This document shows, in pieces, positions 3,748 to 62,683 of a stretch of 64,000 nucleotides of DNA; position 1 is the stretch's first letter; the number at the start of each line of letters is the position of its first letter. The translations under genes and the position numbers were made by a program. The stretch is from NCBI GenBank assembly GCA_020523885.1, contig JAJAPY010000016.1, positions 10,359 through 74,358 of the forward strand, given 5' to 3'. The DNA comes from Candidatus Liberimonas magnetica. Its GTDB lineage: Bacteria; Elusimicrobiota; Endomicrobiia; Endomicrobiales; JAFGIL01. The notes under the pieces are model-generated. The model searched no databases. It saw only the letters and a program-made list of their open reading frames with translations, and was not told where the DNA came from.

Positions 3748-4430
3748 AACTCTGGCTTCAAATATTCTTAAACGGCATAACAAAGGAAAACCCTGTACTT
3801 ATAATGATGATCGGGCTTTGCCCTGTACTTGCCTGCTCCTCAACCGCTATAGATGCTCTTGCTATGGGCATAGTTACTACTTTTGTACTTGTTTCATCGA
3901 ACATCCTGGTTTCCGCCCTAAAGAGATGGACGCCTTCTGAGGTCAGGATACCGGCCTTTATAATAATCATTGCGAGTTTTGTGACTATAGCAGACTATCT
4001 TATGCAGGGTTATTTTCCGGACATCAGCAAAAACCTTGGCGTGTTCGTACCTTTGATAGCCGTAAACTGTATAATACTCGGCCGTGCAGAAGTTTTTGCG
4101 TACAAAAATTCCATGTGGCTTTCCTTCTTGGATGGTTTTGGCATGGGCACAGGATTTACTTTAGTGATACTCCTGTTAGGTGTTATACGCGAAGCTCTTG
4201 GAGCAGGCACGGTATTTCAACATAACCTTGGAATAAGCAATCCCGCCACTTTGATGATACTTCCTCCCGGTGCTTTTATAACCATAGGATTTCTGATAAT
4301 TATCTGGAGAGCCATATATAAAAAAGATAAAATTTCCGGTGCTTCCTGTTCTCATTGTAACCTGCTGCAGATATGCCATCCTGTCGAGAGCGGGAAATGT
4401 GAAGTAATAGATGAATTGGATAAAAAATAA
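3744..4430 (+). CDS. rnfE: Rnf complex subunit E, with an unusual Cys-rich C-terminal tail
   Basis: RnfE/NqrD-type polytopic protein. ATGA overlap with rnfG. Tail is SCSHCNLLQICHPVESGKCEV. Confidence 0.9.
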   Translation: MKLWLQIFLNGITKENPVLIMMIGLCPVLACSSTAIDALAMGIVTTFVLVSSNILVSALKRWTPSEVRIPAFIIIIASFVTIADYLMQGYFPDISKNLGVFVPLIAVNCIILGRAEVFAYKNSMWLSFLDGFGMGTGFTLVILLLGVIREALGAGTVFQHNLGISNPATLMILPPGAFITIGFLIIIWRAIYKKDKISGASCSHCNLLQICHPVESGKCEVIDELDKK

Positions 4431-4454
4431 AGCGTTGAGCGTATAGAATCTCCA

Positions 4455-4513
4455 GGTTTAAGGTGTAAGGGTAAGGTTTAAGATTTAAAACTTACCCCTT
4501 ACTCCTTATCCCT
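4455..4513. repeat. Stutter-arm inverted repeat, AAGG/CCTT dialect (single copy)
   Basis: ggtttaaggtgtaagggtaaggtttaag ... cttaccccttactccttatccc in the rnfE/rnfA spacer. Confidence 0.6.
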
Positions 4514-4534
4514 GTTTTTATCATGGAGTTATAA

Positions 4535-5125
4535 ATGCATTTTAGCGAGATGTTTTCGATTTTCTTTGCTGCACTTATAATCAACAATATAATCCTGATG
4601 CGGTTCATGGGGCTTTGCTCTTTTCTAGGGGTTTCGGACAAAATGAAGCCATCGATAGGCATGAGCCTTGCGGTCGCTTTTGTAATGATTATGTCAACTG
4701 CGGTTACTTGGCCTTTATATAATTATATCCTGATCCCGTTCCATCTTGAGTTCCTGCGCACAATTTCTTTTATACTTGTGATAGTCTCTCTCGTCCAGGC
4801 CGTCGAGATTTTTATGAAAAAAAATGCCCCGGTGCTTTACGGGGCCCTGGGCATTTATCTGCCTCTTATAACAGCCAACTGTGCGATACTTGCCGTGACT
4901 TTCCTGAACACAGATCATAACTACGATTTTCTGAGATCTCTCATACATACTCTGGGAGTAGCAGGAGGATATTCGATTGCCATAATCCTTTTGACGGCTA
5001 TACGGCTCAGGCTAAACTTCGCACCGGTCCCCAGATTGATCAGGGGTTATCCGTTGATTTTTTTTACCGCAGCACTTATGTCTCTTGCTTTCATGGGCTT
5101 TACAGGCCTTTTTGGGATACATTAA
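4535..5125 (+). CDS. rnfA: Rnf complex subunit A
   Basis: RnfA/NqrE-type six-helix membrane protein, paralogous to the preceding RnfE; position in the array. Confidence 0.9.
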   Translation: MHFSEMFSIFFAALIINNIILMRFMGLCSFLGVSDKMKPSIGMSLAVAFVMIMSTAVTWPLYNYILIPFHLEFLRTISFILVIVSLVQAVEIFMKKNAPVLYGALGIYLPLITANCAILAVTFLNTDHNYDFLRSLIHTLGVAGGYSIAIILLTAIRLRLNFAPVPRLIRGYPLIFFTAALMSLAFMGFTGLFGIH

Positions 5126-8463: not shown

Positions 8464-8525
8464 GGCTCGTCTCTTCCCGCCTGATCGGCGGATAAACTGG
8501 CGAGCCCGCCAGTGAGGCGGGGAGG
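8464..8525 (+). promoter_or_regulatory. GC-rich structured leader upstream of frr
   Basis: Outer pairing GGCTCG/CGAGCC encloses hairpin CCGCC-tgatc-GGCGG. A second hairpin, CCCGCC-agtga-GGCGGG, has a 3' arm that overlaps the GGGAGG SD. Confidence 0.45.
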
Positions 8526-10241: not shown

Positions 10242-10248
10242 AACAACA

Positions 10249-10325
10249 GTCTTGAGTAATGTGTCTTGAGTCGTGAGAAAGAAATTGTTTTAGGCTCAGG
10301 ACTTAGGACTTAGGACTTAGGACTC
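10249..10325. repeat. Stutter-arm inverted repeat, GTCTTGAG / GGACTTAG dialect
   Basis: Left arm gtcttgagtaatgtgtcttgagtcgtgag. Right arm ctcaggacttaggacttaggacttaggactca. The arms pair only if G:U pairs on the + strand are allowed. Confidence 0.7.
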
Positions 10326-10334
10326 ATAACAACT

Positions 10335-11291: not shown

Positions 11292-12443
11292 GTGAAAAAA
11301 ATAGTCATTCTCGGCTCGACCGGTTCTATCGGATGCCAGGCAATTAATGTCATAAAACGGCTGAGAGGGGAAATAGAAATAGCCGGCCTTACCACCTATT
11401 CAAATCTGGCCTTGCTGAAAAAACAGATAAGAGTATGCCGTCCTCAGATAGTGTCGGTATGGAAAGAAGAACAGGCTTTGGAATTGAACGAGTGGTGCAA
11501 AAGAAATAAGATCAAGCTTGAAATACTGCATGGCCTTGAAGGGCTTGTAGAAATTGCCGGCTGCGCCGCATCTGACATGGTCCTTTCTGCGGTAGTCGGC
11601 TCGATAGGTCTTAAACCACTTCTTGCGGCTATTAAGAGCAAGAAAAATATAGCTTTGGCAAATAAAGAAGCGCTGGTCATAGCCGGCGATATTATAATGG
11701 CCGAAGCAAAAAAAAATAAAGTTAAGCTGATTCCTGTAGACAGCGAGCATTCGGCGGTATTCCAATGTCTGAAACAAGAGGATGCAAAAACAGTTCATAA
11801 GATCATTTTAACGGCTTCTGGCGGCCCCTTTTACAGGTATAACAGCTCTCATTCAGATATTAAAGTTTCACAAGCCCTGGACCATCCTACATGGAAGATG
11901 GGGCAAAAGATAACGATAGATTCAGCAACTTTGATGAACAAGGGTCTTGAAGCTATTGAAGCTCATCATCTGTTCAATATCGGGTTTGATAAAATAGAAA
12001 TAGTCATTCATCCTCAATCCATAGTCCATTCAATGGTTGAATTTATAGATACTACCGTGTTGGCTCATTTGTCCTATCCTACTATGGAATTGCCTATACA
12101 GTATGCTCTAACATATCCGGAAAGGTGTAAGTTGCCTTTAAGAAGACTTGATTTATCCGTTATTAAAAGATTGGAGTTCGATGCCCCTGATTTTGACAGG
12201 TTCCCGTGTCTGAAACTTGCACTAAATGCAGGAAAGATATCCGGTACAATGCCTGCTGTCATGAATGCGGCGAACGAGAAAGCAGTAAGGTTTTTTTTAG
12301 ATGGAAAAATAAAGTTTACCGATATTGCAAAAATAATAAAAAAAGTCATGTCGCTTCATAAAACTATAGAAAACCCGTCTTTAGATGATATATTTGCAGC
12401 AGATTTATGGGCCAGGGAAGTAACTAGAGCGTTTAGCGGATAG
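11292..12443 (+). CDS. dxr: 1-deoxy-D-xylulose 5-phosphate reductoisomerase
   Basis: ILGSTGSIG NADPH motif, LANKEALV, DSEHSA, HPTWKMG motifs. GTG start. Confidence 0.95.
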   Translation: MKKIVILGSTGSIGCQAINVIKRLRGEIEIAGLTTYSNLALLKKQIRVCRPQIVSVWKEEQALELNEWCKRNKIKLEILHGLEGLVEIAGCAASDMVLSAVVGSIGLKPLLAAIKSKKNIALANKEALVIAGDIIMAEAKKNKVKLIPVDSEHSAVFQCLKQEDAKTVHKIILTASGGPFYRYNSSHSDIKVSQALDHPTWKMGQKITIDSATLMNKGLEAIEAHHLFNIGFDKIEIVIHPQSIVHSMVEFIDTTVLAHLSYPTMELPIQYALTYPERCKLPLRRLDLSVIKRLEFDAPDFDRFPCLKLALNAGKISGTMPAVMNAANEKAVRFFLDGKIKFTDIAKIIKKVMSLHKTIENPSLDDIFAADLWAREVTRAFSG

Positions 12444-12518
12444 CGTAGAGCGGATAGGAAAAACAAAGTCTTTCTGTTTTGTTGTTTACTATACGCTATA
12501 CGCTGAACGCTCTACGCT
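12426..12518. repeat. Stutter-arm inverted repeat, AGCGTAGAGCG dialect
   Basis: Left arm agagcgtttagcggatagcgtagagcggatagg, which overlaps the last dxr codons. Right arm ctatacgctatacgctgaacgctctacgct. Confidence 0.8.
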
Positions 12519-13591: not shown

Positions 13592-13600
13592 AGGATAAAT

Positions 13601-13730
13601 ACTAAACTCTAAATCCTAAACAAACTCAAAACTCAATTAACAAAAACTAAAAAATACAACTGGATTTGTTTTGAATTTGAAGCTTTGAGTATTTGAGTTT
13701 ATCTAGAGTTTAGGATTTAGTGTTTAGGGT
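13601..13730. repeat. Stutter-arm inverted repeat, CTAAACTC / GAGTTTAG dialect
   Basis: Left arm actaaactctaaatcctaaacaaactcaaaactcaa. Right arm ttgagtatttgagtttatctagagtttaggatttagtgtttaggg. The same units appear in both arms but in a permuted order. Confidence 0.75.
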
Positions 13731-13751
13731 TTTAAATTCAGAGGTTAAAGT

Positions 13752-14924: not shown

Positions 14925-15395
14925 ATGTCAAAAGAAATTTATTTAACCAGGGAAGGTTATGCAAAGCTGAATGAAGAGCTTGAAAGGCTCAAAAAAAGAA
15001 AACCTCAAATTTCAAAAGATATAGGGACAGCAAGAGAGATGGGCGATCTAAAAGAAAATGCAGAGTACCATGCGGCTAAAGAGACCCTGGGGCATTTGGT
15101 AAGCAGGATAGCCGAGCTTGAGGACAAGATAGCAAGGTCAAAAATAATTGACGAACAAAATATAGCTAAAGACACGATATATATAGGCGCTACGGTTACT
15201 CTTGAAGATATAGAAGAAAAAGATGAATTTGCTTATACCATCGTTGATATAGAAGAAGCAAACCCAGGCGAGGGTAAAATATCCGTACAGTCGCCTTTGG
15301 CACAGGGCCTGCTCGGGCATAAAGTAGGGGAAACCCTTGAGGTCAATTTGCCAGGCGGCAAATTAAATGTTAAAATACTAAAAATAACAAGATAA
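14925..15395 (+). CDS. greA: Transcription elongation factor GreA
   Basis: Coiled-coil N-terminus with GDLKENAEYHAAKE, C-terminal FKBP-like domain. Confidence 0.95.
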   Translation: MSKEIYLTREGYAKLNEELERLKKRKPQISKDIGTAREMGDLKENAEYHAAKETLGHLVSRIAELEDKIARSKIIDEQNIAKDTIYIGATVTLEDIEEKDEFAYTIVDIEEANPGEGKISVQSPLAQGLLGHKVGETLEVNLPGGKLNVKILKITR

Positions 15396-15404: not shown

Positions 15405-15520
15405 AAATTTCGAATCTCGAATATCGAAATCCGAAAAAAAATCAATATCAAATAGCAAATGAATCAAAATTGTTTTTTATTTAATATTTTTTCGAAATTC
15501 GAAATTGCTTATTCGAGATT
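15405..15520. repeat. Stutter-arm inverted repeat, TTCGAAAT dialect
   Basis: Left arm aaatttcgaatctcgaatatcgaaatccgaaaaaaaa. Right arm ttttttcgaaattcgaaattgcttattcgagatt. Confidence 0.8.
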
Positions 15521-21011: not shown

Positions 21012-23195
21012 ATGAACACAGTTAAAAAGTTAGTGTTTACAGGTATTATTTTATGCTCACCAGCTGTCAGTTCTGTTTATGGCAGTTATGCTATTACGAC
21101 TTTTGCCGGAAACGGAATTGCAGGGTATTCCGGAGACGGAGGCAGTGCGGTTTCTGCTAAAATTAGCTATCCATACGGAGTAGCGGTTGATACAGCAGGG
21201 AATGTTTATATTTCCGGATGTACCGGTTCAATAAATCATCGGATAAGGAAAATAAACCCGTCAGGCATAATATCGAATTTTGCAGGGACCGGAACAGAAG
21301 ATTACTCAGGCGACGGAGGCCAGGCAACTTCCGCCAAACTTGATACTCCCAGAGGAGTAGCGGTTGATGCTACAGGGAACGTTTATATCGTGGATCAATT
21401 GAATAACCGGATAAGGAAAGTAAATACCTCAGGTATAATTTCTACTTTTGCGGGAAGCGGGACTGCCGGTTATTCTGGAGACGGGGGCCAGGCAGCTTCG
21501 GCTAAACTTAATTATCCTTTTGGAGTAGCGGCCGATGCTTCGGGGAACGTTTATATTGCCGATACAGGTAATTTTGTAATAAGGAAAGTAAACCCTTCAG
21601 GCATTATATCTACTTTTGCGGGAAACGGGACTTCAGGTTATTCCGGAGACGGAGGTAGTGCATCTTCAGCTCAACTTGTCCAGCCTGTAGGCATAGCGGC
21701 CGATGTTTCTGGGAATGTGTATATTGCGGATCAATCGGGCAATCGAATAAGGAAAGTAAATACATCTGGAAAAATATCTACCTTTGCAGGAAACGGGACA
21801 GCCGGTTATTCCGGAGATGGAGGTAGTGCTGATTCAGCTCAGCTTAACAATCCTCAGGCAGTAGCGGTTGATACTTTGGGGAACGTATATATATCTGACT
21901 ATGGAAATTATCGAATAAGGAAAGTAAACACTTCAGGCCTAATAGCTACTTTTGCAGGAAACGGGACAGCCGGTTTTTCAGGAGACGGAGGCAGTGCAAC
22001 TTCAGCTCAAGTTGACGGCCCTGTAGGAGTAGCGGTTGATGTTTCGGGGAATGTCTATATCTCTGATTATACTAATATTCGGGTAAGAAAAGTTTTTGTC
22101 AATTCTGAAACAGGAATTATTTCTGGTAAGATAACTAAATCCGATGGCACAACAGCGATTTCAGGAGTGCTTGTAGAAGTATTAGAATCCGGTGTTGTTA
22201 TATCAACTGCAACAAGCGACATAAGCGGTAATTATTCAATAACGGTCGGAATAGGTACTTATGATGTAAGGACTTCCTTGTCAGGGTATCAATCACAGTT
22301 GAAAAATGGCTATAGTGTAAGTGGCGGTTCTATTATAACCATCAATTTTTCTTTAACGGAAGCTCCTTCATCACAGACAGGCACTCTTTCCTGTACGATA
22401 ATAGCATCGGACGGTTCAGCCATTATTAATGCTTTAATAAAAATTTATCAGGGAAGCATACCTGTGAATGAAGGCTATTCTGACCCTTCGGGCAAATGCA
22501 GTTTTTCTTTAGGAGCCGGAAGTTATGATATCTCTGTTTCAAAGGCCGGCTTTCAAACAAAAGCGCAGAAAGGCCTTTCTGTTACTGCTGAACAGACAGC
22601 GTCCGCAAATTTTTCGCTTGCCCCTGCGGTTCAAGCCCGGACAGGGACCATTACGTGCAATATCCAGTGTAACGGAGCAGTTGTAGTAAATGCGGTGATA
22701 AGGATTACCCAAAACAACGATTTGATAGATGTAGAACAGACTGATTCCATAGGGACATACGGGTTTTCCCTTGCGGCAGGAATGTATGACATAAATGTAT
22801 CTAAAACCGGCTATCAGACGTCAAACCAGACAGGCGTTATCGTAAACAATAACCAGACTACAAAGGTATATATTTCACTTCTTCAGACAAGCCAGCAAAA
22901 ACCTCAGGCAGGCATGCAGACTACGCTCGGCAATAACTTGTTCAGCCCCGGTGCCGGCGGGACATGTAAAATTGTGTATAATGTGTCCCAAGCAGGCAAT
23001 GTAACTATAAAAATATGTGATTTGATGGGGAGACAGGTGAGAAGTGCAATTGATAATTCAAACTATACCGCGGGCAGCTACCAGTGGGACTGGGACGGCA
23101 AAGACGATAACGGGGAAAATGTGCCGTCCGGCATATATATTTTATATTTCAAATATCCCGGAGGCACTGAAACAAGGAAGATAGGCGTAAAATAG
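21012..23195 (+). CDS. Secreted protein: six NHL repeats, three CarboxypepD_reg-like domains, FlgD-Ig-like C-terminal domain
   Basis: Signal peptide MNTVKKLVFTGIILCSPAVSSVYG. Six repeats of GYSGDGG..A..L..P.GVAVD..GNVYI.D..N.RIRKVN. Tail contains WDWDGKDDNGENVPSGIYILYF. ATG 21012 preferred over the track start at 20991. Confidence 0.85.
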   Translation: MNTVKKLVFTGIILCSPAVSSVYGSYAITTFAGNGIAGYSGDGGSAVSAKISYPYGVAVDTAGNVYISGCTGSINHRIRKINPSGIISNFAGTGTEDYSGDGGQATSAKLDTPRGVAVDATGNVYIVDQLNNRIRKVNTSGIISTFAGSGTAGYSGDGGQAASAKLNYPFGVAADASGNVYIADTGNFVIRKVNPSGIISTFAGNGTSGYSGDGGSASSAQLVQPVGIAADVSGNVYIADQSGNRIRKVNTSGKISTFAGNGTAGYSGDGGSADSAQLNNPQAVAVDTLGNVYISDYGNYRIRKVNTSGLIATFAGNGTAGFSGDGGSATSAQVDGPVGVAVDVSGNVYISDYTNIRVRKVFVNSETGIISGKITKSDGTTAISGVLVEVLESGVVISTATSDISGNYSITVGIGTYDVRTSLSGYQSQLKNGYSVSGGSIITINFSLTEAPSSQTGTLSCTIIASDGSAIINALIKIYQGSIPVNEGYSDPSGKCSFSLGAGSYDISVSKAGFQTKAQKGLSVTAEQTASANFSLAPAVQARTGTITCNIQCNGAVVVNAVIRITQNNDLIDVEQTDSIGTYGFSLAAGMYDINVSKTGYQTSNQTGVIVNNNQTTKVYISLLQTSQQKPQAGMQTTLGNNLFSPGAGGTCKIVYNVSQAGNVTIKICDLMGRQVRSAIDNSNYTAGSYQWDWDGKDDNGENVPSGIYILYFKYPGGTETRKIGVK

Positions 23196-23228
23196 GACAA
23201 CAGACAACAGATTACAGGCAACTAAACT

Positions 23229-29343: not shown

Positions 29344-29406
29344 TTATGATGATTAAAAAATAGATTACATAGATTATGGTTCTACAGTATTATCTGTATA
29401 ATCAAG
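29341..29406. repeat. Stutter-arm inverted repeat, GATTACA dialect
   Basis: tgattatgatgattaaaaaatagattacatagattatgg ... ctacagtattatctgtataatcaag. Confidence 0.6.
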
Positions 29407-29431
29407 TCCCTAAATAGACTGAAAAAAGAAA

Positions 29432-30403
29432 ATGATACCGAGAGATAAAGAGTTTTCGTTAATAGCAAAGACTATCAAAAAAAATAAAACATTTTTTATA
29501 GCCGGGCATCTTAACCCGGACGGGGATACTATAGGCACGGCTTTGGCTTTGTCGTCGCTATTGACCAGGCTTGGCAAAAAACCCAGGGTGTATTCCAAAG
29601 ATGTTGTCCCTGAATATCTCTCATTTTTGCAGGGTGCCGGTAAAATAATAGTTGCGGATAAAGTAAAAGGAAGGTTTGACTGTGCTATTATTTTAGAATG
29701 CCTTGATATGAACAGGATGGGAGACTTAATATCGCCGGGACAGGCTAAAGAAGTAATTAATATTGACCACCATGCGAATTTTAACCATTTTGGGCATGTA
29801 AATTATATAGATTCAAGCGCTTCTTCCAGCTCCGAGATAATATTCCATCTGTTCAGGCATCTTAAAATGAAGCTGACTCCGCAAGAGGCGAACGCTCTTT
29901 ACGTGGGGGTAGTGACAGATACGGGAAAATTCCAGTATAACAATACAACTTCCTCGGCTGTTTATATGGCGTCTTGTTTGATCGATGCTGGAGTTAAGCC
30001 TTACTATATCTATAATAAACTTTATTCTACGAAAACATTCTCTTCGCTTAAGCTTTTTGGGCTTGCCCTGTCAGGATTAAAAAAAACCGATTCCGGAAAA
30101 ATAGCGTACATTGAAATAACAAAAGAAATGTATAAGAAATCAGGTTCAAACGTTACTGAGAGCGAAGGGATAGTGAATGAAACTCTGAAGATACCAGGTG
30201 TCGTGATAGGAGCCCTTTTCAGGGAAGAAAAAGAAAGAAACATAACAAAAATAAGTTTACGCTCCCATGAAAAATATAATGTAAATAAGGTCGTCCAGGT
30301 TTTTGGCGGGGGCGGCCATAAGAATGCCTCAGGATGCACTTACAAAGGCACGATGGAAACTGCAAAAAAAGTCATCTTAAGCCATTTGGAAAAGCTAGTA
30401 TGA
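29432..30403 (+). CDS. nrnA: DHH/DHHA1 phosphoesterase (NrnA-like nanoRNase/pAp phosphatase)
   Basis: GHLNPDGD, NIDHH and GGGGH motifs. Confidence 0.75.
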   Translation: MIPRDKEFSLIAKTIKKNKTFFIAGHLNPDGDTIGTALALSSLLTRLGKKPRVYSKDVVPEYLSFLQGAGKIIVADKVKGRFDCAIILECLDMNRMGDLISPGQAKEVINIDHHANFNHFGHVNYIDSSASSSSEIIFHLFRHLKMKLTPQEANALYVGVVTDTGKFQYNNTTSSAVYMASCLIDAGVKPYYIYNKLYSTKTFSSLKLFGLALSGLKKTDSGKIAYIEITKEMYKKSGSNVTESEGIVNETLKIPGVVIGALFREEKERNITKISLRSHEKYNVNKVVQVFGGGGHKNASGCTYKGTMETAKKVILSHLEKLV

Positions 30404-31134
30404 CGTTCAACCTGGCAGAATCAGGCCTGCTGGTCATTAATAAACCGTCAGGCATAACATCCTATGGTGTTGTACGGAAGGTCAAGCACCTGTTGCAAAT
30501 TGACAAAGTCGGACATTGCGGAACGCTGGACCCTATGGCAGAAGGGGTCCTTTTAGTGCTGTTCGGTTCCTCAACGAAAATGCAGAGCGTGTTGATGGGC
30601 CAGAGGAAAGTTTACAGGACTGTTTTGTCCCTGGGTGTAAGAACTGACACCGGCGATATAACAGGAAAGATAATAGAAAAAAAAGAAACCAGGGATATCC
30701 AAAAGGAAGATCTTTTAAATGCGCTAAAAAAGTTTAGCGGGGAGATAAGACAGCTTACTCCGCATTTTTCCGCTGTAAAGGTGAACGGGAAAAAAATGTA
30801 CGAGCTTGCCCGCGAAGGGATAACGGTGGAAAGGCCGCCAAGGATAGTAAATATACATGAAATAGAGCTTCGCGGCTTTAATAGAGATGAGGTCAGTTTA
30901 AGGGTGGAGTGCTCAAGCGGGACATATATCAGGACTTTATGCGAAGATATAGGCGAAGAGCTGGGAATGCCAGCGACCATGAAATATTTGTGCAGGGAAA
31001 AGATAGGAAATTACGATATAAGCGCAGCAATAGCATTAAGTGAAATGGATAAATTAGGCAGGGACGGTTTGCTAGATAGAAAAATAAATTTAAGTTCAGA
31101 AATTCAAAATGCAAATTGCAAAATGCAAAATTAA
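30400..31134 (+). CDS. truB: tRNA pseudouridine(55) synthase
   Basis: GLLVINKPSGITS, HCGTLDPMAEGVL catalytic motif. ATGA overlap with nrnA. The last 11 codons read into the TGCAAAAT element. Confidence 0.9.
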   Translation: MTFNLAESGLLVINKPSGITSYGVVRKVKHLLQIDKVGHCGTLDPMAEGVLLVLFGSSTKMQSVLMGQRKVYRTVLSLGVRTDTGDITGKIIEKKETRDIQKEDLLNALKKFSGEIRQLTPHFSAVKVNGKKMYELAREGITVERPPRIVNIHEIELRGFNRDEVSLRVECSSGTYIRTLCEDIGEELGMPATMKYLCREKIGNYDISAAIALSEMDKLGRDGLLDRKINLSSEIQNANCKMQN

Positions 31135-31220
31135 TGTGTCGCCTTTGGCGACTTATTTAAATTATCCCGCCAAGGCGGGATTCCGCAATTTTGCACTTTG
31201 CAATTTTCATTTTGCAATTA
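31101..31220. repeat. TGCAAAAT-dialect element, complex form with two internal GC hairpins
   Basis: Left arm aattcaaaatgcaaattgcaaaatgcaaaatt. Hairpins GTCGCC-ttt-GGCGAC (31138-31152) and ATCCCGCC-aa-GGCGGGAT (31164-31181). Right arm caattttgcactttgcaattttcattttgcaatt. Confidence 0.85.
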
Positions 31221-31244
31221 AGTTAGCCGTTATAGGGGGCTAAC

Positions 31245-32138
31245 TTGAGGCCTTCTTGTGTCAGCATAGGTACGTTTGACGGTGTTCATCTCGGGCACCA
31301 GCATTTAATAAAAAATCTTTTAAAGACAGCGCGAAAAAAAAACCTTAAGAGCATTCTTGTTACAATAGCTTCGCCTGTCCGGCCTGTACCCGGAGTTTTG
31401 ACCGTTCAAAAAGAAAAGCTGGAGCTGTTAAAGAGCTTTTCTTTAGACGAAATAATCATACTCCCGAATACAAGTGAAATATTAGAACAGTCAGCCCTTT
31501 CTTTTTTCGAGAATTTTATTTGCCGGAAACTTAAGACAAAATACATAATAGCAGGCGAAAACTTTGCTTTTGGCCGTAACAGGGAAGGGGATATCCAGTG
31601 GTTGAAAGAAAAATCAAAGGCAGAAGGCATCAGGATCGAAATAGTCAAACCCTATCTGGATAACGGTTTAGTTTCGTCAACAAGGATAAGAAGGCTTATG
31701 CTCTGTGGAAAACTGAGTGAAGCGAATAAGCTTCTAGGCAGAGAATATCAGTTCGAAGGAATGCCTGTAAAAGGAAGAGGGTTGGGTAGGAAATTAGGTT
31801 TTCCTACGATAAATTTGAAAGTTGACCCGGAAAAACTCCTCCCTACAGGAGTTTATGCAGCCTGGGCCGTGATAGGGGCCGGAGATGAAAAGGAGAATGC
31901 GGCAGCCTGGCCTTCTGTAGTAAACATAGGGACGCGGCCGACGTTCTTTAACAAAGGCAATATTCATTCGGAAGTGCATTTACTGGATGTCAAATGTCTA
32001 TGTCCGGACAAAAGAACGATAGTAGCTTTGCACAAGTTCATAAGGCCGGAAAAAAAATTTGAGAATATAGAACGGTTGACAAAACAGGTCAATTTGGACA
32101 TAAGCGAAGCAAAAAACTTCTTTAAGGTGATAAGCTAA
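31245..32138 (+). CDS. ribF: Bifunctional riboflavin kinase / FMN adenylyltransferase
   Basis: IGTFDGVHLGHQHLI motif, C-terminal riboflavin kinase domain. TTG start. Confidence 0.9.
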   Translation: MRPSCVSIGTFDGVHLGHQHLIKNLLKTARKKNLKSILVTIASPVRPVPGVLTVQKEKLELLKSFSLDEIIILPNTSEILEQSALSFFENFICRKLKTKYIIAGENFAFGRNREGDIQWLKEKSKAEGIRIEIVKPYLDNGLVSSTRIRRLMLCGKLSEANKLLGREYQFEGMPVKGRGLGRKLGFPTINLKVDPEKLLPTGVYAAWAVIGAGDEKENAAAWPSVVNIGTRPTFFNKGNIHSEVHLLDVKCLCPDKRTIVALHKFIRPEKKFENIERLTKQVNLDISEAKNFFKVIS

Positions 32139-34465: not shown

Positions 34466-34469
34466 TAAA

Positions 34470-34507
34470 TGATTACACAGATTAGTAAATGCGATTACAT
34501 AGATTAA
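34470..34507. repeat. GATTACA-dialect left arm
   Basis: tgattacacagattagtaaatgcgattacatagattaa. A weak partner, aaatctgtgaat, lies at about 34548-34560. Confidence 0.55.
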
Positions 34508-36665: not shown

Positions 36666-36820
36666 AAAAATCTCGAATATCGAATTTCGAAATCCGAAAA
36701 AATATTCAAGAAACAAATACGGCAAAAAAGCGCATAGAAATCCTTGATTATTTGATTATTAGATATTTGAAATTGCAGTTTTTTTCGGAATTCGTGCTTC
36801 GGATTTCGAATTTGATATTG
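36666..36820. repeat. Stutter-arm inverted repeat, TTCGAAAT dialect
   Basis: Left arm aaaaaatctcgaatatcgaatttcgaaatccgaaaaaa. Right arm tttttttcggaattcgtgcttcggatttcgaatttgatattg. Confidence 0.8.
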
Positions 36821-37309: not shown

Positions 37310-37328
37310 ATCCCGGCAGGGATAAAAG

Positions 37329-42777: not shown

Positions 42778-42848
42778 AATTTAGCAGGCTCCTGATTACG
42801 GTGATTGATTTTTTAGATGTAATAAGGAAATGGTATAGAGTTAAATAA

Positions 42849-44710: not shown

Positions 44711-44835
44711 ATAATTGCAAATTGCAAAATTAAAAATGTAAAATTAAGGTGTCCCGCTGTGCGGGGATGTATTTAAATTAATCCCGCCTTGGCGGGATAC
44801 ATTAATTTTTCATTTTGCAATTTTCAATTTGCAAT
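44711..44835. repeat. TGCAAAAT-dialect element, complex form with two internal GC hairpins
   Basis: Left arm ataattgcaaattgcaaaattaaaaatgtaaaattaagg. Hairpins CCCGC-tgt-GCGGG (about 44752-44767) and ATCCCGCC-tt-GGCGGGAT (44781-44798). Right arm attaatttttcattttgcaattttcaatttgcaat. Confidence 0.85.
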
Positions 44836-44855
44836 AGATCTTAGGGTGTCTATCC

Positions 44856-46505: not shown

Positions 46506-49463
46506 ATGACTATAATTAAAAAAATAATATTCATAGGTATTATTTTACGTACGATATCTGCCAGCTCTGTTTTCGGCCAGGATGTCATTACTACTTTTGC
46601 CGGAACCGGAACTTACGGTTATTCAGGCGACGGAGGGTTGGCCGCTTCAGCCAGGCTATATAATCCTAAAGGAGTAGCGGTTGATAATAATTCGGGAGTT
46701 GTTTATATCTGTGATAGTAATAATCATCGAATACGGAAAGTAAACGCTTCGGGAATAATATCAACTTTTGCCGGAACGGGAACAGCCGGTTTTTCAGGAG
46801 ACGGCAGCCTTGCAACTTCAGCTGAACTTGATACACCTTATGGAGTAGCGGTTGACACTTCAGGGAATGTCTATATCTCTGACCAGGGTAACAACCGGAT
46901 ACGGAAAGTAAACACTTCAAGCACAATAGCAACTTTTGCCGGAGGCGGGACCGGTGGTTTAGGCGACGGCGGCCCTGCAACCTCCGCCCAACTTAATAGT
47001 CCTTACGGAGTAGCGGTTGATTCTTCAGGGAATGTCTATATCTCTGACCAGGGTAACAACCGGATACGGAAAGTAAACACTTCAGGCACAATAGCAACTT
47101 TTGCCGGAGGCGGGACCGGCGGTTTAGGCGACGGCGGCCCTGCAGTCTTAGCTCAACTTAATAACCCTTATGGAGTAACGGTTGACACTCAAGGGAGTGT
47201 CTATATCTCTGATTATACTAATAATTTAATCAGGAAAGTAAACGCTTCAGGCACAATAGCAACTTTTGCCGGAGGCGGGGTCGGCGGTTTAGGCGACGGC
47301 GGCCCTGCAACTTCAGCCCGGCTCACAAATCCCAGTGGTATAGCGGTTGATGATTTAGGGAATGTTTATATTTCTTCCTTTATTGATTTTCGAATACGGA
47401 AAGTGGACACTTCAGGAATAATATCAACTTTTGCGGGGACTGGAATTGCAGGTGATTCAGGCGACGGAGGGAAAGCTACGTTAGCTCAGATAAGTAATTC
47501 TTACGGAGTAGCTGTCGATACTTCAGGGCATGTTTATATCTCTGACTATAACAGTCATCGAATAAGGAAAGTTATTTTGGGGCGCGGGGCTATTGCAGGG
47601 CAGGTATTAGATTCTTATGGAAAAACAGCGGTTTCGGGAGTGCTCATAGAAATATTGCAGTCGGGTGTGCTTAAATCAAGTACGACAAGCGATACGTTCG
47701 GAAATTATGCAGTCAAAGTTGATACCGGGGTTTATAATGTGCGGGCTTCTTTGACAGGCTACCAACCTCAGACTAAAAACGGGTATAATGTAAAAACTAG
47801 TTCGACTGTAACGGTAAATTTTTCCCTTGCACGGATCATCGGCGTTATTTCCGGAAAAGTAACAAAATCGGACGGAACAACGGCGGTTTCAGGAGCGCTC
47901 GTAGAAGCAATGCAATCCGGAGTAACAAAAGCAAGCATTAATACGAATACAAGCGGCAATTACTCAATGAAAATAACTCCGGGGACGTATGATGTAAGAG
48001 TGTCTTCTACAGGTTATGAGCCCCAGCTTAAAACAGGTTATACCGTAGCCGATGGTTCAACTGCCACAGTAAATTTTTCTCTTCTGCAGATCCCAGGTGT
48101 TATTTCAGGCAAAGTGACAAAATCAGACGGAACAACACCTGTCCCAGGAGCCCTTATAGAAATATTACAGTCCGGCGCAGTTAAAGCAAGCGCAACAAGC
48201 GATATAAGCGGCAATTATTCTATAACAACAGATGTGGGAACCTATAATGTAAAGGCATCTAAAACAGGATACCTGTCCCAGACAAAAACCGGGTATGACG
48301 TGACAACCGGTTCGACAAAAACCGTTGATTTTTTGCTTGTCGAGCTTTCTGCAGCTAAAACAGGCGTCATTTCAGGTAAAGTTACACGGTCAAATGGCAC
48401 AACTCCTGTCTCCGGAGCGATGGTAGAAGCGTTAATTTCAGGAATAACAAAAGCAAATGCAACAACAGATGCAAGCGGCAATTATTCTATAAGAGCAGGG
48501 ACGGGGACATATAATGTAAAGGCATCTAAAGCAGGGTACATGTCACAGACAAAAACCGGATACTATGTGGCAGACGGTTCGACAAAAACCGTTAATTTTT
48601 CGCTTGTCGAGCTTGCGGCAGCCAAAACCGGGGTTATTTCAGGGAACGTGACACGGTCGGACGGCATAACACCTGCTTCCGGAGCGGTAGTAGAAGCATT
48701 AATTTCCGGAATAACAAAAGCAAATGTAACAACAGATCTGTACGGCAATTATTCTATAACAGTAGGGACGGGGGCCTATGACGTAAAGGCATCTAAAGGC
48801 GGGTACCTGTCTCAAACAAAAACAGGGTATGACGTGACAACAGGATCGACAAAAACCGTTAATTTTTCGCTTGTAGAGCTTTCAGGGGGCAGCTATGGCG
48901 AAATTGCCGGAAGAGTGACAAAATCCGACGGAGTGACACCTGTTTTTGGTGCGGTAATTGAGGTATTTGAGGCAGGCGTGGAAAGATCAAATGCGATGAC
49001 CGATATAGACGGTTATTATTACCTGGCGGTATCGACAGGGATTTATGATATAAAAGCTTCTATTACAGGATTTCAATCTCAGACAAAAACCTTTTATGCG
49101 CTGGACAGCGCGTCGTTAGTTACTGTAGATTTTTCTTTAGTTGAGGAAATACAGGAAAAACAGGAGATACCTCACGACGACAAAGTGATCGCTCTCGGAG
49201 ATAACTTGTTTAATCCGAGGGCGGGCGGGACATGCAAGGTATGGTTTAACCTTTCACAACCGGGCGATGTAACGATAAAAGTGTATGATTTTATGGGCTC
49301 TCAGGTAAGAACCGGCCTGGACAATGCAAACCATGCTTCGGGGATATCCCAGTGGAACTGGGACGGTAAAGATAATGACGGGAAAATCGTCCCGCCCGGC
49401 ATCTATATTCTGTATTTTAAATACCCGGGTGGAATTATAAAAAGAAAAATAGGCGTAAAATGA
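46506..49463 (+). CDS. Secreted protein: six NHL repeats, six CarboxypepD_reg-like domains, FlgD-Ig-like C-terminal domain (paralog of 21012-23195)
   Basis: Signal peptide, six ...VYIS.. NHL blades, six GVISGKVT.SDGTT.VSGA.VE... domains. The tail WNWDGKDNDGKIVPPGIYILYFKYPGG is nearly the same as the paralog's. Confidence 0.85.
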   Translation: MTIIKKIIFIGIILRTISASSVFGQDVITTFAGTGTYGYSGDGGLAASARLYNPKGVAVDNNSGVVYICDSNNHRIRKVNASGIISTFAGTGTAGFSGDGSLATSAELDTPYGVAVDTSGNVYISDQGNNRIRKVNTSSTIATFAGGGTGGLGDGGPATSAQLNSPYGVAVDSSGNVYISDQGNNRIRKVNTSGTIATFAGGGTGGLGDGGPAVLAQLNNPYGVTVDTQGSVYISDYTNNLIRKVNASGTIATFAGGGVGGLGDGGPATSARLTNPSGIAVDDLGNVYISSFIDFRIRKVDTSGIISTFAGTGIAGDSGDGGKATLAQISNSYGVAVDTSGHVYISDYNSHRIRKVILGRGAIAGQVLDSYGKTAVSGVLIEILQSGVLKSSTTSDTFGNYAVKVDTGVYNVRASLTGYQPQTKNGYNVKTSSTVTVNFSLARIIGVISGKVTKSDGTTAVSGALVEAMQSGVTKASINTNTSGNYSMKITPGTYDVRVSSTGYEPQLKTGYTVADGSTATVNFSLLQIPGVISGKVTKSDGTTPVPGALIEILQSGAVKASATSDISGNYSITTDVGTYNVKASKTGYLSQTKTGYDVTTGSTKTVDFLLVELSAAKTGVISGKVTRSNGTTPVSGAMVEALISGITKANATTDASGNYSIRAGTGTYNVKASKAGYMSQTKTGYYVADGSTKTVNFSLVELAAAKTGVISGNVTRSDGITPASGAVVEALISGITKANVTTDLYGNYSITVGTGAYDVKASKGGYLSQTKTGYDVTTGSTKTVNFSLVELSGGSYGEIAGRVTKSDGVTPVFGAVIEVFEAGVERSNAMTDIDGYYYLAVSTGIYDIKASITGFQSQTKTFYALDSASLVTVDFSLVEEIQEKQEIPHDDKVIALGDNLFNPRAGGTCKVWFNLSQPGDVTIKVYDFMGSQVRTGLDNANHASGISQWNWDGKDNDGKIVPPGIYILYFKYPGGIIKRKIGVK
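46836..47165 (+). repeat. Intragenic tandem repeat, 2 x 165 bp (one NHL blade each)
   Basis: The copies start at 46836 and 47001. By eye I count about a dozen mismatches, including one run of 62 identical nt. A third, more diverged copy follows. Confidence 0.85.
48336..48869 (+). repeat. Intragenic tandem repeat, 2 x 267 bp (one CarboxypepD_reg-like domain each)
   Basis: Units begin with cttgtcgagctt at 48336 and 48603; the next unit starts at 48870. The encoded units, LVEL(S/A)AAKTGVISG..., are highly similar. Confidence 0.8.
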
Positions 49464-49519
49464 GACAACACAACAAGACACAAGACACAAGACTATACTA
49501 TATTGCTTAGGAATTATGG

Positions 49520-50845: not shown

Positions 50846-50880
50846 CTGTATGTCCTGTTTGAAATCAATTTAAAAAAGCC

Positions 50881-50991
50881 GTCATTCCTGCCCCCGATTT
50901 AGGGCATTCGAGGGTAAACTCCAGCAGGAATCCAGAGAAGTTGTTTGTCGTCGATATTCCTGGATTCCCGCTAAAGGCATGCAGGAATGAC
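50881..50991. repeat. Nested inverted repeat with GTCATT...AATGAC termini (REP/MITE-like)
   Basis: Outer pair GTCATTCCTGC / GCAGGAATGAC. Inner pair GCAGGAATCCAG / CCTGGATTCCCGC. Confidence 0.75.
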
Positions 50992-51033
50992 AAAATATGT
51001 TGGAGAGTAGTGAAAATATAATAAAATAAAATG

Positions 51034-56249: not shown

Positions 56250-56267
56250 ACTAAGCGGAACTAAAGT

Positions 56268-56387
56268 AAATTCAAAATGAAAAATGAAAAATGCAAAATT
56301 AATGTGTCCGCTATGGCGGACGTATTAAAATTATTCGCAAAAGGCGAATACCTCAATTTTGCATTTTGCATTTTGCAATTTGCATTT
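56268..56387. repeat. TGCAAAAT-dialect element, complex form with two internal GC hairpins
   Basis: Left arm aaattcaaaatgaaaaatgaaaaatgcaaaattaatg. Hairpins GTCCGC-tatg-GCGGAC (56306-56321) and ATTCGC-aaaag-GCGAAT (56333-56349). Right arm caattttgcattttgcattttgcaatttgcattt. Confidence 0.85.
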
Positions 56388-56416
56388 AAGTCAGCTGCAA
56401 TAGGCGGTCTGACTTT

Positions 56417-57296: not shown

Positions 57297-57390
57297 CATA
57301 GCGTAGAGCGTATAGCGGATAGCGTAGAGAAAAGCTAAAACATGAACAGACTTTGACGTTCCTATACGCTCTACGCTATCCGCTATCCGC
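57297..57390. repeat. Stutter-arm inverted repeat, AGCGTAGAGCG dialect
   Basis: Left arm catagcgtagagcgtatagcggatagcgtagag. Right arm cctatacgctctacgctatccgctatccgc. Same dialect as 12426-12518. Confidence 0.85.
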
Positions 57391-57404
57391 TTTCAGTTAA
57401 ATAT

Positions 57405-59405: not shown

Positions 59406-59482
59406 AGGGGAAATCATAGATGTCCCAATTTGGTGTCATACCCGCGAACAGACTGTGTCGCAATCGGTAAAAATGAAGGTTT

Positions 59483-59560
59483 TGTCATTGCGAGGCGTCT
59501 TTTGCCGAAGCAATCCATATTTTAACGACGAGATTGCTTCGCCTTCGGCTCGCAATGACA
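59483..59560. repeat. Nested inverted repeat with TGTCATTGC...GCAATGACA termini (REP/MITE-like)
   Basis: Outer pair TGTCATTGCGAG / CTCGCAATGACA. Inner pair GCCGAAGCAATC / GATTGCTTCGCC. Followed by the hairpin CCTCTCC-tgcc-GGAGAGG. Confidence 0.8.
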
Positions 59561-60341: not shown

Positions 60342-60347
60342 TAATAT

Positions 60348-60476
60348 GGCAATTTCGAAATCCGAAGCACTAATTTCGAAAAAAATCGCAAACTTAAAAA
60401 AGCAAAATATTTTTTCTTTTTGCCTATTGGTCATTGATTATTTTTTCGAGATTCGAAATTGGTTATTCGAGATTGG
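60348..60476. repeat. Stutter-arm inverted repeat, TTCGAAAT dialect
   Basis: Left arm ggcaatttcgaaatccgaagcactaatttcgaaaaaaatcg. Right arm ttattttttcgagattcgaaattggttattcgagattgg. Confidence 0.8.
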
Positions 60477-60484
60477 AACTATAA

Positions 60485-62644: not shown

Positions 62645-62683
62645 AAACAATTGGAAAATTAGGCTGTTGACGGACTCCTAAGG

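Follow-up and report, generated by a model that had tools for sequence, protein, structure and literature searches.

The three complex elements found between genes in an uncultured member of the Elusimicrobia can best be regarded as a modular palindromic repeat, and are not demonstrated to be a purpose-built three-way-junction RNA. They were examined in a window that is the whole stretch of DNA analysed, 64,000 nucleotides (64 kb) in length. Each element is about 125 bases long (120-130 nt), is intergenic and consists of two small GC hairpins nested within a long AT-rich hairpin, as is the case in 3/3 copies. The explanation that we favour, to which we give about even confidence, is a BIME/MITE-like nested palindromic repeat that is lineage-specific and co-transcribed, and that forms a generic stem-loop barrier at cistron boundaries.

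Structure of the complex elements

The earlier note had placed three copies at 31101-31220, 44711-44835 and 56268-56387, each with two GC hairpins separated by a conserved linker. Direct reading confirmed the coordinates and sequences, the presence of both hairpins at the expected positions in all three copies, and the linker as quoted (tTATTTAAATTa, gTATTTAAATTa and gTATTAAAATTa in copies 1, 2 and 3). In an alignment of the three copies, mean column identity was 81%, spanning arms, junction and linker. The best-conserved portions are the junction and the linker, which are near-invariant (TTAAKGTGT and TATTWAAATTA, respectively), and the stems of the small GC palindromes (13-18 nt) differ from copy to copy. 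The inverted arms (33-45 nt, 82-92% complementarity) are composed of tandem heptamers, A-rich on the left and U-rich on the right. TGCAAAAT occurs 24 times, against an expectation of 6.8±2.6. In copies 1 and 3, a third hairpin, which the earlier note had overlooked, directly follows the right arm and has a Shine-Dalgarno-like sequence (ATAGGGGG / ATAGGCGG) in or near its loop.

Copy 1 (+ strand throughout) begins with a left arm of A-rich tandem heptamers, AAATGCA x4.6 (31100-31132; pair I6, 33 nt, 88% complementary). The truB frame enters this arm and stops at the TAA of AAAATTAA (31132-31134). The 5' junction, AATGT of TTAATGTGT (31133-31137), extends hairpin 1 and forms a weak pairing with the linker's first nucleotides. 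Hairpin 1, GTCGCC-ttt-GGCGAC (31138-31152), has pair probabilities of 0.97-0.99 and is followed by the AT-rich conserved linker TTATTTAAATT (31153-31163), which is U-rich immediately 3' of hairpin 1 and whose complement is likewise U-rich 3' of hairpin 2 on the opposite strand. Hairpin 2, ATCCCGCC-aa-GGCGGGAT (31164-31181), and a junction of 5 nt, TCCGC (31182-31186), precede the right arm of U-rich heptamers, GCAATTT x4.9 (31187-31219). The 3' hairpin, AAGTTAGCC-gttataggg-GGCTAACTT (31220-31246), carries the Shine-Dalgarno-like AGGGGG within or beside its loop, and the TTG start of ribF (31245) overlaps the end of its stem.

In copy 2, also on the + strand, the left arm (44713-44747; pairs I1 and I15) is followed by hairpin 1, CCCGC-tgt-GCGGG (44753-44765), whose stem can be extended by a U.G pair, the linker GATGTATTTAAATTA (44766-44780; pair I1), hairpin 2, ATCCCGCC-tt-GGCGGGAT (44781-44798), and the right arm (44803-44835). 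ATTTAAAT is the centre of a palindrome that comprises the whole element, with 65-nt arms of 78% complementarity. A short hairpin, ATAGA-tcttagggtg-TCTAT (44834-44853, +), then leads to the xerD ATG at 44856. Copy 3 (+) comprises a left arm (56267-56299; pair I2), hairpin 1, GTCCGC-tatg-GCGGAC (56306-56321), the linker GTATTAAAATT (56322-56332), hairpin 2, ATTCGC-aaaag-GCGAAT (56333-56349), and a right arm (56355-56388). Its 3' hairpin, AAGTCAG...CTGACTT with ATAGGCGG inside (56388-56415, +), is homologous to that of copy 1 with one T-A to C-G exchange, and the downstream ATG is at 56417.

Predicted folds and covariation

The fold energies of the complex copies are -41 to -54 kcal/mol each (z = -5.7 to -8.9), with 0/200 shuffles as good, whereas the simple elements reach only -18 to -34 kcal/mol. 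Concerning the three-way junction predicted in the earlier note, copies 1 and 3 are indeed predicted to form a Y, with hairpin pair probabilities of 0.8-1.0. Copy 2, on the other hand, prefers a rod (-53.7 kcal/mol, against -43.6 kcal/mol for the junction, a difference of 10 kcal/mol), as hairpin 1 and hairpin 2 of this copy are mutually complementary. A consensus prediction with RNAalifold on a plain MAFFT alignment of the three copies, a check that had been proposed for the junction, also resulted in a rod and not a Y. A three-way-junction covariance model matched exactly the three copies within the window, with 119-146 bits on the + strand and 82-97 bits on the - strand, and gave no comparable match over 51 kb of relatives. 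No Rfam family, three-way-junction ribozymes included, matched the elements at the gathering score or at E<=5, and the complex elements have no hammerhead-type core.

Both strands of the three complex copies fold about equally well, and thus nothing there points to RNA over DNA. Strand asymmetry, considered for the three complex copies only, was uninformative as evidence, with one copy favouring the - strand, one favouring the + strand and one giving a tie. Of 19 intergenic hairpins, 13 are more stable when folded from the sense strand, 5 are less stable and 1 shows no difference. The hairpin at 10242-10334 gave values of -35.3 on the + strand and -13.2 on the - strand.

The observation that the stems differ between the copies and yet remain self-complementary proved correct for all three, and had been taken as a signature of selection on structure. 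This interpretation is supported by paired cells and by covariation, but neither by point-by-point compensation nor by any RNA-specificity. In a model-fitted alignment, pairing was found in 93.1% of the cells, compared with 25-51% when partners were slid by 1-3 columns, both sides had changed in six pairs (three in the arms, two in hairpin 1 and one in hairpin 2), and the observed covariation score was reached by just 6 of 500 shuffles, all of these figures being from three sequences only and from an alignment fitted to the structure. Hairpin 1 varies through run lengths that change in step on both sides, GTC(C)nGC / GC(G)nGAC. In hairpin 2, the stems of copies 1 and 2 are identical and the loops are aa and tt, making the two hairpins exact reverse complements. 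This 'compensation' between copies is something other than stepwise point covariation. Template switching during replication can make and mend perfect stems without selection (PMC8794818), and at the DNA level it could yield the same covariation pattern.

Genomic setting, modules and phage relatives

The window belongs to a contig from an Elusimicrobia metagenome-assembled genome (MAG). Every real gene in the window lies on the + strand (about 53 same-strand genes), and the elements occupy gaps between one stop codon and the next ribosome-binding site. The orientation of the core relative to transcription is identical, sense, in 3 complex and 5 simple copies. The genes downstream of the complex copies are unrelated: copy 1 precedes ribF, copy 2 xerD and copy 3 a gene that lacks a family match and lies after one for a MoxR-like ATPase. 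The truB-ribF gap measures 58 nt and is element-free in relatives whose RibF is 62% identical, and it is 6 nt in a relative with 50% identity. Between mbl and xerD, relatives whose XerD is 82-83% identical have a gap of 11 nt. The sites that copies 1 and 2 occupy are thus empty in the nearest relatives, indicating lineage-specific gains. Taking into account that these orthologous sites are empty and that the downstream genes are unrelated, sequence comparison indicates that the elements are not a gene-specific regulatory RNA.

Inverted repeats number 63 in the 64-kb window, compared with 5 in 21 kb and 2 in 11 kb of relatives. TTAAGTT at 31090-31096 (+) is repeated at 31218-31224, flanking copy 1, and the pair may represent a 7-bp target-site duplication. 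Excising the element along with one TTAAGTT restores the truB stop codon (...KINLS*). The flanks of copy 3 are merely TAAAGT / TTAAGT, and copy 2 has no flanking duplication. No transposase was noticed among 10 window proteins scanned, and no RAYT or parent element was seen within the 64-kb window. DNA pattern scans of a genome contig collection and a metagenome contig collection, both without the MAG or its close kin, gave 81 and 44 matches, respectively, all of them single chance matches in unrelated organisms. A protein-database search with the peptide encoded by the element's open frame gave no matches. The short Logan contigs of the MAG (SRR16235686) break inside elements.

The proposal of a modular toolkit was borne out, as component hairpins and arms recur separately. 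Stand-alone CCCGCC...GGCGGG hairpins had been reported at four positions, and those at 8477 (CCGCC-tgatc-GGCGG), 8505 (CCCGCC-agtga-GGCGGG; the two spanning 8477-8521, +) and 41427 (TCCCGC-tagg-GCGGGA) were found as such; the one at 37310 is related, yet reads ATCCC-ggca-GGGAT. The 8505 hairpin shares bases with the Shine-Dalgarno sequence of the gene that follows. In the 64-kb window, CCCGC..GCGGG hairpins lie outside coding sequence in 6/6 cases. Both the window and a relative contain the 'TAAKGTGTC...GAC' hairpin module on its own. A long stand-alone form of the hairpin-1 module, TAAGGTGTC-ATTGCTTCT-CCCGC-aaa-GCGGG-AGAAGCAAT-GACA (62679-62725, +), shares with hairpin 1 its 5' flank, GTC/GAC base and CCCGC tip. 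In the relative (L127 4102), ATTAATGTGTCCCGC-gata-GCGGGACGT stands alone, and a sister strain (L129) has a nested insertion of ~170 nt at the matching site.

Arrays with a period of 7 or 14 are intergenic in 34 cases and coding in 3 (64-kb window), and a period-7 array is present in 18 of the 35 gaps of at least 60 nt. In all three complex copies, the arms were scored as arrays of period 7. No fewer than seven unrelated heptamers occur within the window, and the arrays end 0-30 nt from a Shine-Dalgarno sequence or start codon. The intergenic DNA of this Elusimicrobia lineage is dominated by heptamer-armed hairpins. Heptanucleotide arrays, together with an explanation by polymerase slippage, have already been published (PMC4679880, introduction).

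A few phage contigs with terminase and portal genes harbour the same arm, the TTAAKG junction and GC hairpin(s), and here too the elements are sense-oriented and separate genes that run in the same direction. Among these phage contigs are IMGVR_UViG_3300035211_000217, 3300035136_000053, 3300017963_000121 and 3300024429_000013. The layout is co-linear, with unrelated hairpin sequences and a similar linker (TATTTNAA). The element on contig L181 has a single hairpin. In the phage copies, GGUUUUU / GGUUUUAAUAUUU is found directly 3' of the second hairpin, and in L188 and L178 the (AAATGCA)n array directly adjoins TTAAGGAG / ATAGGGAGG and ATG. The same 21-mer arm is found in phages of 41-58% GC. 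The phage versions are without a stable long stem (z of -0.1 to -1.2), so that a duplex or RNase III mechanism cannot apply across the whole of the wider family. Viral scans with the 5' and 3' junctions joined, or with arm plus linker, gave mostly chance matches in coding DNA, and the real ones were confined to L229 plus three known beforehand (L181, L183 and L187). By BLAST, the copies resemble the phage loci in the arms only, and it was also by the arms that these loci were fetched. The putative homology of the core is based on co-linearity and on the comparison of GATTCCACAATTTT in L181 with GATTCCGCAATTTT in copy 1.

Origin and possible roles of the elements

We suppose that a repeat family colonised short gaps between co-directional genes of this bacterium. 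Each copy consists of separable modules, namely heptamer arms, the 'TAAKGTGTC...GAC' GC hairpin, an AT-rich linker and a mirror-placed GC hairpin of the 'AT-CCCGCC' type, to which copies 1 and 3 add a hairpin presenting a Shine-Dalgarno-like sequence just upstream of the next start codon. The Y shape would be the outcome of palindromising a unit (arm, junction and small hairpin) that already held a small palindrome, and selection on the three-way junction as such would not be necessary. The similarity among the three complex copies known suggests that they derive from one composite ancestor. They may have spread to unrelated gaps through some copy mechanism, and pairing in the stems may have been kept by template switching or slippage in the hairpins along with selection against copies that do not fold. 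The position in long same-strand gene arrays, always in sense orientation, suggests that the elements are transcribed. In the mRNA, they would most likely act at the cistron boundary as a generic block made by a very stable stem-loop, and the GC hairpins would roughly double the predicted stability compared with that of the simple elements. RNase III-type processing could take place on the long AU duplex, the structure could bar 3' exonucleases, and the ribosome-binding site of the next gene would stay exposed. Against this reading, conservation of junction and linker above the stems is what would be expected of a specific recognised RNA/DNA site, and is more than a generic barrier requires. 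It is conceivable, at rather low probability, that the elements are an undescribed gene-boundary signal common to the Elusimicrobia lineage and its phages that a particular host factor recognises in the transcript. The layout of such a signal would be A-rich heptamers, TTAAKG, GC hairpin, (U)AUUUNAA linker, GC hairpin, U-rich heptamers and start codon, and its reader a junction- or linker-binding protein or nuclease, leaving the hairpin sequence free and fixing position and linker.

Only one canonical intergenic terminator (704-733) is present in the 64 kb with its single-strand gene array, and some other signal is therefore plausible. Hairpin 1 with the U-rich half of the linker might stop sense transcription and hairpin 2 with the complementary half antisense transcription, the heptamer arms being overgrown A- and U-tracts. 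A lenient scanner flagged hairpin 1 or 2 with its tail in 3/3 copies (2-3 sites per 700 nt versus 0.8-1.0 expected), the linker is T-rich directly 3' of each hairpin on that hairpin's strand, and the U-rich sequence at once after the second phage hairpin fits as well. A stricter scan, which required 6 or more T in 8, flagged 704-733 and no element hairpin. The tails are interrupted (UUAUUUAAAUU, GUAUUAAAAUU), the stems are merely 5-6 bp, 5-6 nt separate hairpin 2 from the U-rich arm, and inside conserved operons (truB-ribF; phage terS-terL) efficient termination would require a new promoter. We consider terminators or attenuators unlikely, although with a real chance. A scan for sigma-70-like promoters found none in two of the three regions and, in copy 2, a match within chance expectation; -35/-10 combinations tested by hand had the wrong spacing. 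A dedicated structured RNA, for example a protein-binding riboregulator or ribozyme in which the junction itself is selected, would have the single-stranded junction and linker as its active or recognised core, with helices free to vary. The contrast between variable stems and a nearly invariant junction and linker, pairing in 93% of cells with covariation in six pairs, the strictly sense orientation and the co-linear phage layout agree with this idea. The rod of copy 2 and of the RNAalifold consensus, the equal folding of both strands, the Rfam and hammerhead results, the empty orthologous sites and unrelated downstream genes, the single hairpin of L181 and the sample of just three sequences argue against it, and we regard such an RNA as improbable.

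The proximity of the arrays to ribosome-binding sites and start codons, seen also in L188 and L178, would suit a translation-control cassette at the gene start whose active parts the hairpins merely position or mask. The occurrence of one 21-mer arm in phages of differing GC content agrees with this, and there is a precedent (PMC4679880). A single sequence-specific binder is difficult to reconcile with the variety of unrelated heptamers, and the A-rich array of the complex copies is paired and lies ~100 nt away from the start codon. Such a cassette is, in our estimate, quite improbable. The least probable reading in our estimate is a site acting in DNA, either a cruciform or a protein-bound site of the kind found in BIMEs (nucleoid protein, gyrase or IHF-type), or else a sequence for recombination or attachment that phages also carry. 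The palindromic nature of the whole element, as in copy 2, its strand-symmetric folding and the sequence in common with phage contigs are in its favour. An asymmetric core that is always sense would be unexpected for a symmetric DNA site, the intergenic hairpins favour the sense strand, and an attachment site is unlikely at many copies per 64 kb.

The nested palindromic repeat that we favour resembles several known systems. BIMEs and REP elements of enterobacteria, studied by Gilson, Bachellier and colleagues, are reportedly mosaics of inverted palindromic units and conserved linkers. A REP is an imperfect palindrome of 20-40 nt with a sequence conserved within the genome and a conserved 5' GT[AG]G, and the cognate transposase is RAYT (Y1 HUH). 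Our elements are likewise extragenic between co-directional genes, with mirror-oriented small GC-rich imperfect palindromes, a conserved linker (11-12 nt), modular combinations, hairpins that would be co-transcribed and could stabilise upstream mRNA and, in copy 2, halves that are mutually reverse complementary. In contrast to REPs, they have TAAKGTGT as the conserved 5' flank instead of a GTAG-type tetranucleotide, the palindromes are 13-18 nt with stems not kept between copies, so that they fall outside the REP definition, and long AT-rich heptamer arms enclose the hairpin pair. Correia and ERIC-type MITE-like repeats are about 100-150 bp, co-transcribed and form long hairpins, and Correia RNAs are cut by RNase III. 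Length (120-130 nt), terminal inverted arms as in MITEs, short intergenic gaps, filled and empty sites between relatives (copies 1 and 2) and a long duplex predicted in mRNA are shared, but the arms are tandem heptamers rather than unique terminal repeats, the core holds two nested GC hairpins and a target duplication is arguable for copy 1 alone.

Intergenic heptanucleotide tandem repeats are said to be among the long simple-sequence repeats of Mrazek et al. The TAACTGA repeats of Beggiatoaceae are of this type (PMC4679880). The period of 7, the overwhelmingly intergenic location, often a few nt from a start codon, and the patchy phylogenetic distribution are similar; inverted array pairs forming one hairpin, several unrelated heptamers and GC hairpins enclosed by some arrays are different. 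An A-rich tract, GC-rich stem-loop and U-rich tract, and a linker that is U-rich after each hairpin, recall intrinsic (bidirectional) terminators, from which the elements differ in their interrupted or displaced U-tracts, two hairpins and location inside conserved operons. Phage T7-type RNase III processing hairpins are long hairpins between cistrons of one transcript. The elements described here are also long intercistronic hairpins, in phage and host-type contexts, but have no sequence relation to them, and the phage versions do not form a stable long duplex.

To our knowledge, there is no genetic system in the phylum Elusimicrobia. The results document an uncultured lineage of this phylum with heptamer-armed intergenic hairpins, some of them common to phages, and offer a way into the punctuation of long single-strand gene arrays, be it by processing, stability or termination. 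If our reading is true, a complex-looking RNA shape would have arisen naturally without selection for that shape, the Y 'junction' and the apparent covariation both coming from nested, palindromised, slippage-prone heptamer arrays and GC hairpins, and this would be a warning for covariation-based RNA discovery in repeat-rich genomes.

Architecture and genomic setting of the three copies

The three complex elements lie exactly where the earlier note had placed them, at 31101-31220 (copy 1), 44711-44835 (copy 2) and 56268-56387 (copy 3). In every copy, the left arm, A-rich and composed of tandem heptamers (AAATGCA and variants), is followed by the junction TTAAKGTGT, a GC hairpin of 5-6 bp (hairpin 1), the linker (K)TATTWAAATTA, a second GC hairpin of 6-8 bp (hairpin 2), a 5-nt junction and, at the 3' end, a U-rich right arm. 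Copies of the octamer TGCAAAAT number 24 across the window, where 6.8±2.6 would be expected. The left half of copy 2 (arm, junction and hairpin 1) is approximately the reverse complement of its right half, with ATTTAAAT at the centre. A Y-shaped fold, that is, a three-way junction, arises automatically when a unit that already holds a small palindrome is itself palindromised. Copies 1 and 3 possess a fourth helix directly 3' of the right arm, with stems AAGTTAGCC/GGCTAACTT and AAGTCAG/CTGACTT that show a T-A to C-G exchange at one pair. The helix contains ATAGGGGG / ATAGGCGG, and the start codon is situated at or just beyond its 3' end. Because the period is 7, AUG appears in all three frames across successive heptamers. 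The last heptamer and junction read AUG-NAA-AAU-UAA, a three-codon mini-ORF, at 31124-31134, at 56292-56303 and in simple copies; at the arm/junction of copy 2 (44737-44748) the mini-ORF reads AUG-UAA.

All real genes in the window are on the + strand, and include the housekeeping array rimP-nusA-infB-rbfA-truB-ribF-EF-G-rpsO-pnp...ftsK...xerD. The elements occupy intergenic gaps, starting 5-20 nt past a stop codon and leaving 0-30 nt to the following ribosome-binding site. Copy 1 is found between truB and ribF, copy 2 between genes for an MBL-fold hydrolase and XerD, and copy 3 between a MoxR-like ATPase gene and a gene without a family match. RibF and XerD each have a 100% identical counterpart in an Elusimicrobia MAG, and the nearest relatives display protein identities of only 62% for RibF and 82-83% for XerD. 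In the 62% relative, two contigs have an element-free truB/ribF gap of 58 nt; the gap is 6 nt long in an Endomicrobiales MAG. In the 82-83% relative, the mbl/xerD gap of four contigs consists of AAATAAACTTT and nothing else. Copies 1 and 2 are lineage-specific gains. We counted 63 pairs of inverted repeats in the window; intergenic ones in relatives are few (5 in 21 kb and 2 in 11 kb).

Concerning copy 1, a 1-nt difference relative to the gene in relatives has cost truB (30334-31134) its ancestral stop. The truB frame reads on through 13 codons of the left arm until the TAA of AAAATTAA, a stop supplied by the element. The 7-bp direct repeat TTAAGTT flanks the copy, and deleting the copy with one TTAAGTT recreates the truB stop (KINLS*). 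The repeat and the restored stop, clear in this one copy only, are suggestive of insertion. As a separate observation, the ribF start codon is apparently TTG in the window (31245), ATA in the 62% relatives (L129 ~1374) and ATG in a 50% relative (L130 10001), and the ribF gene call in the 62% relatives begins 16 codons late, at a GTG.

Folding and covariation

The copies are very stable when folded. Folding energies of copies 1, 2 and 3 were -48.9, -53.7 and -41.1 kcal/mol (z-scores -7.9, -8.9 and -5.7), better than those of every shuffled sequence. A covariance model based on the Y fold matched exactly copies 1-3 in the window (119-146 bits), with the simpler TGCAAAAT elements scoring 19-50 bits, and found nothing comparable in 51 kb of related genomes. 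The three-way junction predicted in the earlier note is recovered in the computed folds of copies 1 and 3, whose hairpin pair probabilities are 0.8-1.0. Copy 2 folds as a rod at -53.7 kcal/mol, compared with -43.6 when the junction is enforced; its hairpins 1 and 2 are near-identical palindromes, able to pair together. The RNAalifold consensus on an unforced alignment was likewise a rod.

Covariation was measured on three sequences with the alignment fitted to the Y structure. A standard pair was formed in 93.1% of cells, compared with 25-51% when partners were slid 1-3 columns; six pairs had changed on both sides, and 6 of 500 shuffles reached the covariation score. With three sequences and a structure-fitted alignment, the signal is real but thin. 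The compensatory changes had been taken as a mark of selection on structure; the six two-sided changes agree with this, but the pattern departs from stepwise covariation of the classic kind. Across copies, hairpin 1 varies as a series, GTC(C)nGC / GC(G)nGAC with n = 0, 1 and 2, in which run lengths shift together in both halves. The hairpin 2 stems of copies 1 and 2 are identical and, with aa and tt loops, are exact reverse complements of each other. That template switching within hairpins can generate perfect stems and mend them has been demonstrated (PMC8794818). The patterns of change in both hairpins are compatible with slippage and template switching, and equally with selection on RNA.

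Copies 1-3 fold about equally on either strand. Among 19 intergenic hairpins, the sense strand folds better than the antisense in 13, worse in 5 and equally in 1 (one-sided sign test, ~0.05), with 48 versus 29 G.U pairs. The heptamer-armed hairpin at 10242-10334 (5 G.U pairs) reaches -35.3 kcal/mol on the + strand and -13.2 on the - strand, a signature of either RNA-level structure or strand-biased C-to-T mutation. The sense-strand bias thus makes RNA-level relevance plausible for the class of intergenic hairpins, the complex copies themselves being strand-balanced.

Related repeats in the window and in phage contigs

Arrays of period 7 (or 14) number 34 in ~5.8 kb of intergenic DNA versus 3 in 58 kb of coding DNA in the window, and are present in 18 of the 35 gaps of at least 60 nt. 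Examples are at 4431-4524, 10242-10334, 12425-12514, 13596-13732 and 15406-15520, and further loci at 23196-23222, 36673-36813, 49473-49493, 57307-57391 and 60345-60482. At least seven unrelated heptamers are in use (AAATGCA, AGCGKAT, TCGAAAT, CTAAAYY, AGGTKTA, TTAGGAC and GACAACA), and the arrays mostly form inverted arms of one long hairpin. None was found in 23.7 kb scanned from the closest relatives. Intergenic heptanucleotide arrays, and 7 nt as a trace of polymerase slippage, have already been described (PMC4679880, citing Mrazek et al. 2007).

The stand-alone hairpins listed previously do exist, although the one at 37310 is ATCCC/GGGAT rather than CCCGCC. None of the six CCCGC...GCGGG hairpins in the window falls within a gene. 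The hairpin-1 module occurs alone upstream of ftsK in a relative, as ATTAATGTGTCCCGC-gata-GCGGGACGT (L127 4102; region 4075-4160). In a sister strain (L129 5280-5520), an insertion of ~170 nt, a hairpin element of the 'GTCATTGCGA...' type, is nested within the ATTAATGTGTCCCGC...GCGGGACGT hairpin upstream of ftsK. A long form of the module, TAAGGTGTC-ATTGCTTCT-CCCGC-aaa-GCGGG-AGAAGCAAT-GACA, is present at 62679. The lone and long forms therefore make hairpin 1 a short member of a 'GTC...GAC' hairpin family. With the arms and the hairpin-1 module found as separable parts, the modular toolkit suggested earlier is supported.

Other repeats were also observed. Long GC-rich hairpins of the 'GTCATT(G/C)C...G(C/G)AATGAC' type constitute a second family (50870-51000, 59465-59560 and 62684-62722); one member has an 18-bp perfect stem, and base and tip are related to hairpin 1. 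The motif 'GATTACAnAGATTA' recurs in the gaps at 29345-29425, 34466-34506 (period 22) and 42790-42805. At 15309-15387, the 3' end of a gene with its stop at 15395 matches RAGATH-32 in Rfam below threshold (29.8 bits, gathering score 41.8, E = 0.007). Large genes contain long tandem repeats in frame (165-168 and 267 nt), at 21099-22061 in the 20991-23195 gene and at 46728-47434 and 48183-48883; the product of 46506-49463 has matches to NHL-repeat and T9SS-tail protein families.

Counterparts were found by scanning IMG/VR viral contigs with the arm 21-mer, so that the arm match is built into the search. Two phage contigs, L183 and L187, encode small terminase, large terminase and portal proteins. 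Their terS-terL gap and another gap (L183 2126-2246; L187 7228-7351 and 9939-10059) carry (AAAATGC)n-AAAATTAAGG, CAGGC-ttc-GCCTG and TATTTYAARAG, and then a second GC hairpin, GGUUUU, a TTTGATA heptamer array and a start codon, a layout co-linear with the bacterial copies. A one-hairpin version, AAAATTAATGAGTC-ATCAGCC-taa-GGCTGAT-TCCACAATTTT, lies 3' of a 522-aa ORF in L181 (1578-1690), its 3' junction identical to that of copy 1 at 13 of 14 positions. In L188 (6947-6982) and L178 (~4773-4795), the array is directly 5' of TTAAGGAG / ATAGGGAGG and an ATG; a further site is at L229 389-450. All phage sites are in sense orientation and occupy gaps that separate co-directional genes; the arm and TTAAKG junction are often followed by GC hairpins, and other period-7 arrays are abundant in these contigs. 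The phage versions have no stable long stem (z of -0.1 to -1.2). Array, junction and GC-hairpin layout are common to phage and bacterial elements, whereas the enclosing duplex is not shared. BLAST of the copies against the phage loci revealed similarity in the arms only; homology of the cores would rest on co-linearity and the L181 junction.

Origin and possible role

The copies are lineage-specific, interspersed, modular nested palindromes at cistron boundaries, always in sense orientation. The main rival explanation is that they are terminators or attenuators. A U-rich linker half is directly 3' of each hairpin on the hairpin's own strand, a lenient terminator scanner flags the hairpins, and the window has just one canonical intergenic terminator. 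However, the U tails are interrupted, and the elements are located within conserved operons, with no promoter-like site above chance expectation. On the coding strand of the 64 kb, only TAGGCAGA-ttagag-TCTGCCTA with a following T8, at 704-733, is convincing as a canonical intrinsic terminator. A dedicated three-way-junction RNA is a less likely alternative; in its favour, the helices differ among copies around a conserved junction and linker. Against this stand the rod fold of copy 2, the phage form with a single hairpin, the orthologous sites in relatives, which are empty, and an Rfam search that gave no match.

As interspersed nested palindromes, the elements most resemble BIME/REP mosaics, Correia/ERIC-type MITE-like hairpins and intergenic heptanucleotide repeats. 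They have the mirror palindromes, conserved linker and extragenic position of BIME/REP architecture, but lack the conserved palindrome and GTAG that define REP. With MITEs they share inverted termini and filled versus empty sites, although a target duplication is arguable, and in copy 1 only. Our literature search turned up neither heptamer-armed, doubly nested elements nor their phage counterparts. We presume that the copies spread from a single composite ancestor, and that DNA-level templated repair and selection for foldability would have kept the stems paired. In mRNA, the element may act as a generic stem-loop block, either an RNase III-type processing duplex or an exonuclease barrier, that would leave the next ribosome-binding site exposed. 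The GC hairpins would roughly double stability, from -18 to -34 kcal/mol in simple elements to -41 to -54 in complex ones. The elements offer a useful caution on apparent covariation in repeats, and a lead into the gene-boundary signals of an uncultured phylum.
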